Shown here: in pieces, positions 52,305 through 56,794 of the stretch | How the letters are laid out: each line of letters begins with the position of its first letter | Position numbering within the stretch: position 1 is the stretch's first letter | Source: Candidatus Micrarchaeota archaeon | Lineage (GTDB): Archaea > Micrarchaeota > Micrarchaeia > Norongarragalinales > SBBD01 | DNA length: 64,000 bases | Direction: 5' to 3' | NCBI GenBank assembly: GCA_018819225.1 | Contig: JAHJQN010000008.1 | Span: 1-64,000 of the forward strand | Made by a program: the position numbers and the translations under genes | Notes under the pieces: generated by a model | The model's input: only the letters and a program-made list of their open reading frames with translations | The model's database searches: none | What the model was told of the DNA's origin: nothing

Positions 52305-52625
52305 TTAATCGTACCGGGGTTGTCCGTGCGAACGCCGCGTGTGGGCACCCGTACTCGGATCCAAGGGACGGTAACCACCAAAGCGCTTCTTTTCGCGTGC
52401 GCGCTCCGCCATCTTCTTCTTTTTATCGAAGACGCGCAAGTGCTTTCCGCACGAAATGCAGTAGCAGACTTCACGCGTGATGCGCGGTACCCACTGGTCG
52501 TCGTACGCGTCCTGGCGTTCAACGGGGTTCTGAATCATGACCTTCTCGATGAAAACCGCTTTGTCTTTGCGCACGGCTCGGCCGCATTTGCTGCAATGAA
52601 CGAGCCGTTCTCTTCCTCTACCCAT
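52305..52625 (-). CDS. rps26e: Ribosomal protein S26e
   Basis: 'GRERLVHCSKCGRAVRKDKA' and 'YCISCGKH' zinc finger. Confidence 0.88.
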   Translation of the reverse strand: MGRGRERLVHCSKCGRAVRKDKAVFIEKVMIQNPVERQDAYDDQWVPRITREVCYCISCGKHLRVFDKKKKMAERAREKKRFGGYRPLDPSTGAHTRRSHGQPRYD

Positions 52626-52694: not shown

Positions 52695-54074
52695 CTAGTG
52701 CGAGTTATTGAGGAGTTCCAAGCGGATCTTGGAGAGCAACCGCTGTTTTTTCTGGCCCGGCTTTAATGCATGTTTGAGCACGTCATGCCAGGTACGCACG
52801 GGAATGATTTCCACTTGCTTCCGTTGCTGATCATCCAACACCAGGTCCCCAACCGTAGTTTCCGGTACGATAACGCGTTTGATGCCTGCTTCAATACACG
52901 CCTCCACTTTCTGCGTGACGCCTCCGATGGGAAGCACTTCCCCGCGAACGGAAAGAGAGCCGGTCATGCCCACGCTCTGATCAATCGGCACTTCCTCTAA
53001 AGCGGAAATGACGGCCGTTGCAACGGAGATGCTGGCGCTATCCCCTTCCACGCCTTCATACGTCTGCAAGAATTGAACGTGAATATCGTAACGGGAAATA
53101 TCCTTTCCAATATGCTTCTTGATTAACGCCGAAACATTTTCGACGGCTTCTTTCGCGATGTCTCCCAGCTTACCCGTGGCAATAATGCGCCCTTCCTCTC
53201 GGGAAGACGACGGAGCAACCTCCGCTACAATAGGCAATATAATACCGGAATCACCCATGACCGCCAGACCATTCACGCGGCCGACCTCATAGCCGTTCAC
53301 GAGAAACACGCGATAATCCTTTTTCACGTCGATGAATTGTTGCGCGCCCTGTTGTTCGAGCGTGCGCGCCAAGCGCCTCGCATCCTTCACTTGTTGACCG
53401 GAAACCATTTTGCTGTCTTGCTCGCGAGCCAAATCCCCGGCTGCGCGCACCAAACCCCCCAGGTCCCGCAGCTTAAGCGTCAACCGGTTTTTCCGACCGG
53501 CACGCTTGCGGGCCTCGTAAATGATTTCTTGAATCGCGTCTTGATCAAAATGAGGAATCTTGCCGTCCTTGCGAACCTCTTGAGCAATGAATTGAACGAT
53601 CTTGAACTGGTTCTCTGGCGTATCCGGAACGCTCTCCTCCATATATACTTCATAACCGTACCCGCGAATACGAGAACGCAACGCGGGATGCATGCGACGC
53701 AAATCCCGGTAATTACCCGCTGCAATCAAAACGAAATCGCACGGAACCGGATCCGTCTTGACTTGAGCACCAGAGGACATCTCGCTTTGACCCGTAATGC
53801 TGAATTTCTTCTCCTGAATGGCGGTCAATAGTTCCTGCTGCGCTTTCGGTCGAAGCATCGACACTTCATCAATAAAGAGAACGCCTTTGTTCGCACGGTG
53901 AATCGCTCCCGCCTCAATGCGCAAGTGCGCGGGAGTCCCTAAACCACCCGAATTGTGCATTAAGATGCCATTCGCGAAATAGTTGCCCGTAGACGTCGTC
54001 GCATTGTATACAAAACCATCGAATCGCCTGGACTGCTTGGATTCCACGCGAACGGATTGGACCTTTCGAGGCAT
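52695..54074 (-). CDS. lonB: C-terminal half of archaeal Lon protease (LonB) preceded by a split-intein C-fragment
   Basis: After residue 41: '[27 protein letters not shown]' (Walker B), '[16 protein letters not shown]', catalytic 'GDSAS' and 'GGVTQK'. No Walker A or TM region. Confidence 0.93.
53952..54074 (-). mobile_element. Split intein C-terminal fragment (IntC, 41 aa)
   Basis: Intein blocks F/G '[21 protein letters not shown]' ending His-Asn, followed by +1 Ser (53949-53951). Confidence 0.9.
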
Positions 54075-54152
54075 AACGCAGAGAACACCTTACTAGAAAC
54101 TGACGCCAAACAGATTTATAAAGCGGCGCAGTAAAGGTTAAAGGAAAAGCTT

Positions 54153-54533
54153 ATGGCTATTGTCATTGAGGCGGGAATCCCGTTCGATTTCCTATTCTCC
54201 GTGTTATCGTTCGCGTTCTTCGGCATACTATCATTGTACTCGCTGCGCACCTATATATTCTTTAAAGAAAGCAGTCTCGCGCACCACCTGAAAATCATGT
54301 CCATAGGGCTCGCGTTGTTTACCTTCGCTAAAGCCGTGGAATTCAGCGAGTACATTTGGGGGGTATACCATTTACAGATCGTGAACGTGGTGTGGATGCT
54401 GGGCGCGCTCGTCATGTTATTCGGAATACTGGACTTCCGGAGAGAATTCCTGCGCTTCAAGTGGTTGAAGGAAATCCAGGACGAAATTGCGGTTGAAAAG
54501 AAGCGCTGGAGAAAAAACGAGAAAACCGACTAA
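54153..54533 (+). CDS. Hypothetical three-TM membrane protein
   Basis: Three hydrophobic helices. Shares the TTTATAAA box (54115-54122) with the divergent lon fragment. Confidence 0.7.
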   Translation: MAIVIEAGIPFDFLFSVLSFAFFGILSLYSLRTYIFFKESSLAHHLKIMSIGLALFTFAKAVEFSEYIWGVYHLQIVNVVWMLGALVMLFGILDFRREFLRFKWLKEIQDEIAVEKKRWRKNEKTD

Positions 54534-54608: not shown

Positions 54609-55499
54609 TCAGATCAAGATTTCCTTGCCCGCCTCGGCAATATCCACATTCGGAAACACTTCCTTCGCTTCGGCCAGCAACACGCTGAGATCCGCATACC
54701 GGTTGCTGAAATGCGTCAGTAAGAGCGCCTTCACTTTGGCCTTGCGTGCAGACTCGGCCGCCTGGCGGGCCGTCGAATGATATTTCTTTTTCGCCAACGA
54801 CTGGGAATCATCCGCAAACGTCGAATCGTGCACCAACAATTCCGCATCCTTTGCCGCGCGCTCAATCGCAGAACATGGAAGCGAATCCCCGGTGTAGACG
54901 ACGCGCTTGCCTTTTTTGACGTACGTCACATCCTCCAGCTTGATTTTCTTGCGGCCGATTTTCACGAATCCGTTATCCTGGATTTCCCGGAATAACTTCC
55001 CTTTGATGCCCAAGTCCTTGGCCTTCTTCTCATAAAACTTGTTGATCGGCTGTTCCTCAATGACGTAACCGAGCGCCTCGACCTTGTGATCGACTTTGAA
55101 AGCGGATACGCGAATCAGTTTATCCTCGAACACGCGCTTGCTCGAAGTCACTTCCACGATGCGGACCGGAAACTTCGGACGCAAATACCGCAGGGAAAGC
55201 ACGGTTCCCATCAATTCCTTGATCCCGTGCGGTCCGAACAGCAGCAATTCGTCGGTACGGTCATGCAAGTTCATCGTCTGAATGAGCCCAAAAATGCCCA
55301 GAATGTGATCGGCGTGCAAATGGGAAAAGAAAATAGCATTCACTTTCGCATACGAAATGCGGTACTTCATCATTTGACGTTGCGCGCCCTCACAACAGTC
55401 AAACAAGAACGTATTCCCACTCTTGATCGCAAAACACGAAGGCACCCGGCCCGGAGCCGGTACCGCACCCGAGTTTCCAAGAACCACCAAACGAAGCAT
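54609..55499 (-). CDS. rnz: Ribonuclease Z
   Basis: 'FDCCEGAQRQ', 'SHLHADHILG', exosite arm, 'VYTGDS', 'HDSTF', 'HST', 'THFSNRY'. Confidence 0.95.
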   Translation of the reverse strand: MLRLVVLGNSGAVPAPGRVPSCFAIKSGNTFLFDCCEGAQRQMMKYRISYAKVNAIFFSHLHADHILGIFGLIQTMNLHDRTDELLLFGPHGIKELMGTVLSLRYLRPKFPVRIVEVTSSKRVFEDKLIRVSAFKVDHKVEALGYVIEEQPINKFYEKKAKDLGIKGKLFREIQDNGFVKIGRKKIKLEDVTYVKKGKRVVYTGDSLPCSAIERAAKDAELLVHDSTFADDSQSLAKKKYHSTARQAAESARKAKVKALLLTHFSNRYADLSVLLAEAKEVFPNVDIAEAGKEILI

Positions 55500-55510
55500 A
55501 TGCAAAAACC

Positions 55511-56794
55511 TCAAGCGATTCCGATCACGATGTCACACGCATTGGTACCCGTAGGACCCGTCACGATCACGTCCCCGGTTTTCTTCAAGAATGAGTGGGA
55601 GTCATTGTTCTTTAAATACTTGGCGGGTTTCAAGCGCTTTTTAGAGGCGCGGTCATTCGTGGAAGAATCCACGATGGCTCCGGCTGACGGACTCGATCCA
55701 TCTATTCCATCGGTTCCGGCACTTAATAGCACGCCGTTTTTCAACCAGGAGAGCGCGCTCAGGCAAAGCTCTTGATTCCGACCGCCGATCCCGTTTCCGG
55801 ACACCGTCACCGTCGTTTCACCGCCCGCAACAAACGTCAAGTTACGGTTGAGTAAATTCGCAAAGCGCTTTCCATGATCGCGGGCATCCCCAGTCAAACC
55901 GCGAAACACCCATGGACGCATGCCCTGCCGACGCAAAAAAGATGACGCCGCATCAATCACCGTATTATTGTCGCCGAGAACAAACGAGTGCGAGGAAACG
56001 CGAACGGATTGTTTGGAAGGAAAGCGCATTAATGTTTTCATGATGGGATCATTCGAGGAAAGATGCAAATAGCGTTTCAATAATAATCGCGCGCGCTGAT
56101 AATGATGCGTGCTGGAAACCGTGGGACCTGACGCGATATCCGCCAGAGAACCATGGACGACATCCGAAAGCACGAGATTCACTATCTTCGCGTTTTTGAA
56201 CGCCAGACCCAATTGACCGCCCTTGACTTGAGACAAACAGCGGCGCACTTCATTCAATTCGGATATCGAGGCGCCGCCACGCATTAATCCCTCGGAAATC
56301 CGTTGAACATCTTTCAATGAAAGGCCTTCCCGGGGAAGGGTCAACAAAGAGGAACCGCCTCCCGAAATTAAACAGACCACCACATCCTCTTTGGTTACTT
56401 CCGATGCAAGCGCAAGAATCTTTTGCGTCGCCGACACATTTTCTTTCGAAGGAAACGGGTGCGTACCCTCCAACAATTGAATTTTTTTCGTGCGAAAACG
56501 TTTTCGAGTTCCTTTTGGAACGATCACGATACCGGAAGTCACCGGCACCAATCGTTCAAAGGTTTCCGCCATGGCCCCCGATGCTTTCCCGAAACCGATC
56601 ACGAACACGCGCCCAACCGGAAACGGGTGGCCACGCACGACGAATTCGTTTCGCTTGAATTGAACAGAGGAACGCATCAATTGATCCGGCGAAATGCTTT
56701 CGAGACCAAGCTCAAAAGCCCTCAAAGCCAATTCCCGTCGCTTTCGATCGCCGTGCAATAGGGTTCCGCGAGAGCGGATGCTCATAATCTTCAC
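55511..56794 (-). CDS. Glycerate 2-kinase (MOFRL family)
   Basis: 'GFGKAS', 'LISGGGSSL', 'VKGGQL', 'IASGPT', 'GGETTV..GGRNQE', 'GTDGIDG', 'TGTNACD'. Confidence 0.93.
   Translation of the reverse strand: MKIMSIRSRGTLLHGDRKRRELALRAFELGLESISPDQLMRSSVQFKRNEFVVRGHPFPVGRVFVIGFGKASGAMAETFERLVPVTSGIVIVPKGTRKRFRTKKIQLLEGTHPFPSKENVSATQKILALASEVTKEDVVVCLISGGGSSLLTLPREGLSLKDVQRISEGLMRGGASISELNEVRRCLSQVKGGQLGLAFKNAKIVNLVLSDVVHGSLADIASGPTVSSTHHYQRARLLLKRYLHLSSNDPIMKTLMRFPSKQSVRVSSHSFVLGDNNTVIDAASSFLRRQGMRPWVFRGLTGDARDHGKRFANLLNRNLTFVAGGETTVTVSGNGIGGRNQELCLSALSWLKNGVLLSAGTDGIDGSSPSAGAIVDSSTNDRASKKRLKPAKYLKNNDSHSFLKKTGDVIVTGPTGTNACDIVIGIA

Follow-up and report, generated by a model that had tools for sequence, protein, structure and literature searches.

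The archaeal protease LonB is very probably made by protein trans-splicing in a Candidatus Micrarchaeota archaeon, from two separate genes that carry between them the halves of a naturally split class-1 intein, and the product would be the only LonB of the cell. One of these genes lies in the 64,000-nucleotide stretch of DNA analysed here (the window: positions 1 to 64,000 of contig C7 of the metagenome-assembled genome, or MAG, G000, which has 1.37 Mb in 8 contigs and is 90% complete), at 52695..54074 on the minus strand. It starts with the C-terminal fragment of the intein (IntC) and continues as the C-terminal part of LonB (LonC). The partner gene, LonN-IntN, lies outside the window on the same contig (C7:143364-144449, plus strand) and encodes the N-terminal part of LonB followed by the N-terminal intein fragment (IntN). 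The split intein counts 119 + 41 amino acids (aa), has serine both as its first residue (Ser1) and directly after its last (Ser+1), and is without any cysteine. An earlier note on this DNA had described the IntC-LonC gene and supposed that Walker A, the membrane hairpin and an IntN were encoded elsewhere; the LonN-IntN gene supplies all three.

Two genes for one LonB

The IntC-LonC gene is a stand-alone open reading frame (ORF) of 459 codons plus stop. Its first 41 codons (53952..54074, minus strand) are IntC, with intein blocks F and G (..LMHN), and the leader reads ...NGILMHN up to residue 41 and then SGGLGTP. The following 418 codons plus stop (52695..53951, minus strand) run from Ser+1 through Walker B and the AAA lid to the S16 protease domain with its Ser and Lys, so that from Ser42 on the protein is the C-terminal two thirds of an archaeal LonB. 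Residues 39-451 match positions 194-607 of 608 in the LonB model TIGR00764 (664 bits, cut-off 516.6), Pfam finds the domains Lon_C, LonB_AAA-LID and AAA_32, and residues 41-454 align, with few gaps, with residues 180-594 of Thermococcus onnurineus LonB (PDB ID: 3k1j; E 5e-171). Aligned residue by residue with 3k1j, the protein keeps Walker B (VLFIDE) as well as the serine of DSAS and the lysine of TQK. The matches to TIGR00764 and 3k1j, together with the sequence, thus bear out the 41-aa leader with its terminal His-Asn before Ser+1, and the intact Walker B and Ser/Lys dyad, that had been noted earlier.

The signals of an independent gene were likewise read where they had been reported, all on the minus strand: an in-frame TAG TAA at 54090..54095, five codons 5′ of the ATG, a putative Shine-Dalgarno-like AAGGTG at 54086..54091, 11 nt 5′ of the ATG, and a putative archaeal TATA-box-like TTTATAAA at 54115..54122, ~44 nt 5′ of it. 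The in-frame stops rule out a longer reading frame, the open frame being 464 aa. On its 5′ side the gene is bounded by a divergent ORF for a 126-aa membrane protein (54153..54533, plus strand), whose ATG (54153) lies 79 bp from that of IntC-LonC (54074). This neighbour is, to judge from its conservation, a real gene, since three other genomes of the same family have homologues, 49-61% identical to it, next to their C-half.

A search of G000 with the LonB model found the missing part at C7:143490-144110 (plus strand), matching TIGR00764 positions 4-202. The gene that contains it encodes 361 aa from the likely start ATG at C7:143364, and shows in order the Walker A motif GTPGTGKS, a two-helix membrane hairpin, the stretch ...GDVKHDPFQ and then the intein part, which starts Ser-Leu-Pro-Pro-Glu and continues ...TTPEHAFLL...LKKGEWLQSLNES to the stop, giving 119 intein residues that end ...LKKGEWL. 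It is therefore the LonB N-half ending in DPFQ, Ser, intein block B and a stop for which the earlier note had proposed searching the genome. Its stop is overlapped by a convergent aIF5A gene. A distance of 89 kb separates the starts of the two genes, which occupy opposite strands of one 241-kb contig, and each half has its own start and its own stop. The LonB model is fully covered only by both together (4-202 by the N-half, 194-607 by the C-half), and the joined exteins, 242 + 418 = 660 aa, compare with open frames of ~630-720 aa in intein-free relatives. The cut in LonB falls within the AAA+ module, where ...DPFQ meets SGGL..., and separates Walker A from Walker B, so that an ATPase could not be formed by either half alone.

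The model search of the 90%-complete G000 found no intact lonB, the other Lon-like hits lacking the full architecture; two of these, of 674 and 256 aa, have the Lon_C domain only. A LonB-like AAA-only paralogue of 479 aa without the protease domain is encoded on another contig (C5, locus L002, 841-2280, plus strand); it has a CxxC...CxxC zinc ribbon in place of the LonB membrane hairpin and a weak DUF7130 match, and copies of ~480-530 aa occur in nearly all 40 related genomes searched. The same contig holds two further ORFs with contiguous inteins, whose kind was judged from their N-terminal residues: a Cdc48-like one of 1390 aa (C5:10669-14841, minus strand) and a ribonucleotide reductase-like one of 1645 aa with two intein matches (C5:92570-97507, plus strand).

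As the genome is a MAG in 8 contigs, one might suppose that an error of assembly or binning had split a contiguous intein-containing lonB by a chimeric join near 54075. Both junctions, however, lie deep within one 241-kb contig; the N-half runs to a proper stop codon, over which the convergent aIF5A gene extends, and the ATG of the C-half follows in-frame stops; and different studies have yielded at least 20 MAGs, each assembled independently, with the same boundaries, which leaves this explanation with hardly any probability. Misassembly, raised by the earlier note as a point to check, is excluded by comparison, since 21 distinct C-half sequences, taken from MAGs assembled independently, show the two-gene layout again.

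Intein fold and splicing residues

Residues 6-44 of IntC-LonC match intein-bearing NCBIfam models, and the Pfam model Intein_splicing is matched by IntN at positions 21-92 (E 3.9e-6) and by IntC (53952-54065) at positions 117-155 (E 0.064), stretches that complement each other as parts of one domain. A profile of 16 IntN sequences compared with the PDB gave the Mja KlbA intein as best match (PDB ID: 2jmz; E 5.7e-9), with Tvo VMA and Pab CDC21 also found, and a profile of 21 IntC sequences gave the C-inteins of NrdJ-1 and of Nanoarchaeum NEQ528 (E 0.014 for the latter). A homologue search with residues 1-44 of IntC-LonC returned 1 match from 4 candidates, a result limited by the word index that is not evidence of rarity. 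The end of IntN coincides exactly with the point at which contiguous relatives carry an endonuclease insertion (alignment A4). One contiguous relative, an intein of 161 aa in genome G034, is 42% identical to IntN and 57% to IntC. Its AlphaFold 2 model has a mean predicted local distance difference test (pLDDT) of 90.1, and in a structure search all matches ranking above a Hedgehog autoprocessing domain (rank 31) were inteins or bacterial intein-like (BIL) domains. The best of them were PhoCDC21-1, the RadA mini-intein, TvoVMA, the cysteine-less Aes123 PolB1 and KlbA, at template-modelling (TM) scores of 0.75-0.82. By way of this model the Hedgehog/intein (HINT) fold is predicted for the split intein as well.

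We modelled IntN and IntC of G000 as a complex, each with short exteins and with its own alignment. The pair scored 0.83 and the best of 3 controls 0.00, against a mark that is reached by 58 of 80 solved complexes and by 2 of 110 mismatched pairs. At least 89% of contacts are common to the runs, the pLDDT of the partner is at least 71, and the predicted interface takes in IntC residues 2-42 and the residues of the N-terminal junction. The model supports binding of IntN to IntC, though the pass may reflect likeness to split inteins already solved.

The residues that splicing would use are present on both sides. Of 16 split relatives, 15 have Ser at position 1, directly after ...HDPFQ, and the remaining one has Thr. 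Block B (N3), TTPEH, keeps its Thr and His without change in 21 sequences, split and contiguous, and all 21 C-half sequences have the terminal Asn and Ser+1 of block G (..MHN|SGG). Alignment A2, of 21 IntC sequences, shows Y23, N24, T26, T27, G30 and the terminal N41 without exception. Between members of the family the proportion of synonymous differences in IntN is 0.67-0.90, i.e. synonymous sites are saturated, and that of nonsynonymous differences 0.20-0.36; the ratio of the corresponding rates (dN/dS) is ~0.09-0.17 where computable. IntN is under purifying selection.

From the genes we infer that the precursors would be a membrane-anchored LonN-IntN of 361 aa and a soluble IntC-LonC of 459 aa. 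IntN and IntC would dock and complete the HINT fold, an N-O acyl shift would take place at Gln(-1)-Ser1, the acyl group would pass to Ser+1 by transesterification, the terminal Asn would cyclise and release the intein, and an O-N shift would give the peptide bond. The predicted product is a LonB of 660 aa with the junction DPFQ-SGGLGTP, which is the exact sequence of intein-free LonB in sister lineages.

Several observations weigh against trans-splicing. The genome is only 90% complete. Each half alone stays under the Pfam Intein_splicing gathering cut-off of 35.8 bits, IntN with 26.6 and IntC with 12.9, where each fragment covers part of the model only. Block F (VYN.TT) has an invariant Asn in place of the usual Asp, found in most class-1 inteins. 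Missing from IntN is the “NX” histidine, a conserved (K/R)-His between blocks N1 and N3 that has been described as the signature of Ser1 inteins (Pasch et al. 2023, PMC10189870): IntN has one His only, that of TPEH in block B, and the 16 split relatives share no other conserved His column. That part of IntN holds a conserved NRRPY stretch, at most a candidate for an equivalent of NX, which in the complex model packs against IntC residues 18-27. Finally, both halves are basic, unlike the charge-complementary pairs of DnaE and gp41-1.

The block F Asn and the lack of an NX histidine, together with the penultimate His, which the G000 IntC has but 7 of 21 relatives exchange for S, R, K or F, would also fit a two-subunit LonB that is not spliced at all, in which catalytically dead intein halves serve as a non-covalent docking module. 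Such a module, however, needs no Ser1, no block B Thr and His, no terminal Asn and no Ser+1, all of which are invariant or nearly so despite the saturated synonymous sites. A dead fragment, likewise, would hardly retain just these residues. Contiguous inteins at the same LonB site, moreover, also carry the block F Asn, and these must splice for LonB to work. A retained HINT domain of 160 aa would, in addition, lie between Walker A and Walker B in the AAA+ core. We consider a docking module distinctly unlikely, and trans-splicing the far better account of the pair.

Charge bears on how the halves might meet. The earlier note had counted 6 Arg/Lys against 2 acidic residues in IntC and likened it to the basic IntC of DnaE; the count stands (net +4), but the likeness does not hold, as IntN is even more basic (27 K/R against 11 D/E, net +16), more so than 98% of G000 ORFs of at least 200 aa. 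Both halves are basic in the whole family, whereas in another family IntN is acidic in two genomes. The picture of oppositely charged halves drawn from DnaE and gp41-1 is thus inapplicable here. Conceivably trans-splicing is a control point, LonB activity being set by separate expression of the halves and by conditional docking of basic fragments, with anionic lipids or nucleic acid perhaps retaining IntN until its release. Association would then work by a mechanism unlike the electrostatic capture of DnaE and gp41-1, and the Ser1 site would function without the NX histidine. We think a control point of this kind unlikely on the whole; if real, it would make this a mechanistically distinct, orthogonal and cysteine-free split intein.

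Distribution and stages of the split

Related loci come from Candidatus Micrarchaeota and Micrarchaeia MAGs of groundwater, sediments and springs. A survey of related genomes, as the earlier note had suggested, found the LonN-IntN gene in all ten other genomes of the family, with an IntN of 114-163 aa that has Ser1 and TPEH and terminates at a stop codon past the LRKG strand. The IntC-LonC gene was seen in eight of the ten, the two without it being incomplete genomes; contiguous lonB was found in none of the ten, and the N- and C-half genes lie on different contigs. These ten genomes with the split layout span four genera. The 21 distinct C-half sequences, all from independent assemblies, start 30-50 codons before the terminal Asn, with ATG in 20 and GTG in one. 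When the IntN profile was run against a library of 1.84 billion representative proteins, 32 clusters matched at E 1e-10 or better, roughly half of which end within 15 residues of the end of IntN, i.e. are N-half genes.

Two library proteins, P0002 (745 aa) and P0004 (802 aa), end in IntN at twice the normal N-half length and show two matched stretches; they may be N-halves with an additional intein. The N-half of the closest relative (L030, G002:C39, 2167-2679, plus strand) has 163 rather than 119 intein residues, running 44 codons past the usual end, and its low-complexity tail could be due to read-through or a shifted stop.

A decaying relic, lonB broken by a rearrangement within its intein into two non-functional pieces, would suit the DPANN, whose genomes are reduced and prone to gene loss, and G000 also lacks an endonuclease gene related to the one that lies between the halves in relatives. 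Against this, both pieces keep full-length open frames with Walker A and B, the lid and the Ser-Lys motifs intact, the layout is maintained in ten genomes of four genera, the C-exteins of the family are 74-84% identical, IntN dN/dS is ~0.1-0.2, and G000 has no other LonB to replace the split one. The combination that the earlier note took as the mark of a relic, an absent LonN-IntN and a separate intact lonB, is the reverse of what G000 contains. Decay is thus very improbable, and the pair is better read as working genes for a trans-spliced LonB.

The order to which the window genome belongs holds every stage, from intein-free lonB through a contiguous mini-intein, a contiguous intein with endonuclease and a fractured gene to dispersed halves. 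Intein-free lonB with DPFQ|SGG accounts for 56 of 84 distinct loci. Contiguous mini-inteins in lonB have 161 aa (of the Ser1 type) and 165 aa (of the Cys1 type), and contiguous inteins with an endonuclease insert have ~430 aa (Cys1) and 497 aa (Thr1). The fractured gene is seen in genome G020, where LonN-IntN, a free-standing ORF of 344 aa and IntC-LonC follow one another on one strand. This ORF shares 35% identity with the insert that the 497-aa intein carries in frame, 41% and 31% with the ORFs that G031 and L068 have in the same place, and 27% with the insert of an RtcB intein; its relative in G039 is a remnant of 70 aa. It has no Pfam match and no PDB sequence match, and LAGLIDADG-like motifs were made out by eye. 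We call it a putative endonuclease by its identity to the inserts of the 497-aa and RtcB inteins and by these motifs. With this ORF as query, tblastn found nothing in G000, where the halves are dispersed without a free-standing ORF of this kind.

Some details of these loci may be added. The 344-aa ORF (L139, G020:C14, 1813-2847, plus strand) shares 4 nt with the start region of the C-half gene. Beside the remnant in G039 a cysteine-rich ORF of 124 aa with a hydrophobic N-terminus lies between the halves (L140, G039:C10, 1817-2191, minus strand). An RtcB-like gene in another genome (L036, G009:C27, 2785-3981, plus strand) has an intein after ...GYDINC with a LAGLIDADG insert.

In the C-extein tree the window genome's family forms a single clade of 9 rows (distinct C-exteins), all of them split, with a support of 97, and the split state overall needs at least four changes, which fits a mobile fractured element fixed in some lineages. 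Neighbouring genes tell of the later dispersal. An RNase Z-like gene (rnz; in the window at 54609..55514, minus strand) marks the ancestral lonB locus: in genomes where lonB is intein-free or has a contiguous intein, and in other split genomes, it adjoins the N-terminal side of the gene; within the family it stands beside the C-half in six of six loci where it was found, and LonN-IntN stands beside aIF5A in 10 of 11 N-half loci. This synteny argues that the N-half moved once. A single inversion was considered as the cause and rejected, as none that could be constructed accounts for where rnz, aIF5A and the two halves lie and which way they point; at least two events were needed for the relocation. 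The course that these stages suggest is that a contiguous intein with an endonuclease domain gave rise to a fractured gene with a free-standing endonuclease, that the latter then decayed, and that the N-half came to lie next to aIF5A in the ancestor of the family.

Just 3′ of the C-half, the window has a gene for a 106-aa zinc-ribbon protein (CSKCGR...CISCGKH; 52305-52625, minus strand), which three other genomes of the family keep in the same place and which by its look may be ribosomal protein eS26.

Comparison with known inteins

To our knowledge natural split inteins are few, and those in cellular genomes are essentially DnaE of cyanobacteria and PolB of Nanoarchaeum. Split inteins and fractured genes are thus already known as kinds. 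For a split intein in Lon, or in Micrarchaeota, full-text literature searches found no describing paper, in keeping with the earlier note, whose writer knew of none in Lon. The split intein of LonB would be the first in a protease or in an AAA+ membrane machine, and one whose split has been kept through the diversification of a whole Micrarchaeota family.

A close parallel in a cell is the PolB of Nanoarchaeum equitans (NEQ068/NEQ528; PDB IDs: 5oxx; 5oxz), likewise a DPANN split intein with Ser1 as oxyester nucleophile, halves encoded far apart and a short IntC, of 30 aa there and 41 aa in LonB. Its host, however, is a DNA polymerase rather than a membrane AAA+ protease, its block F has Asp where the LonB IntC has Asn, and, as quoted in PMC10189870, it has a histidine (His61) at the NX position, which the LonB IntN lacks. 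Cyanobacterial DnaE (Ssp, Npu) shares with LonB the canonical split site, the cellular gene, the dispersal of the halves on opposite strands, a long IntN (102 aa, against 119 aa here) and a short basic IntC (36 aa, against 41 aa here), but it uses Cys1 and Cys+1 and pairs an acidic IntN with a basic IntC, whereas LonB has Ser1 and Ser+1 and two basic halves.

Fractured genes were described by Dassa et al. (2009, PMC2677866) as split inteins (gp41-1, NrdJ-1 and IMPDH-1) flanking a free-standing endonuclease gene; Lon is not mentioned there. The same arrangement of LonN-IntN, free-standing endonuclease ORF and IntC-LonC occurs in G020, G031 and L068, and the split site is again the endonuclease insertion site. 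The LonB loci differ in lying on archaeal chromosomes instead of phage-like metagenomic contigs, and G000 differs further in having lost this endonuclease and in halves that lie 89 kb from each other on opposite strands. The stages contiguous, fractured and dispersed, found in one order, would form a rare natural record of the origin and fixation of a split intein. Contiguous Lon inteins, Pab Lon and Pfu Lon, are known from Pyrococcus (O'Brien et al. 2010, as cited in PMC4031507; PMC3906313); they too sit in archaeal LonB but are contiguous and splice in cis.

Among cysteine-less split inteins, Aes123 PolB1 and PolB16 OarG (PMC11923092, PMC10189870) resemble LonB in combining Ser1 with Ser or Thr at +1, and the model of the contiguous G034 relative superimposes on the Aes123 PolB1 structure (PDB ID: 9hth) at TM scores of 0.74-0.79. 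Both differ in coming from phage or metagenome polymerase genes, and PolB16 OarG further in being atypically split and in depending on the NX histidine that is absent from the LonB IntN. Cysteine-free inteins have been called rare and sought after (PMC12707363, PMC11923092). Next to these two, LonB would offer a naturally cysteine-free Ser1/Ser+1 pair with a canonical split site, and dozens of diverged natural variants for testing speed and orthogonality.

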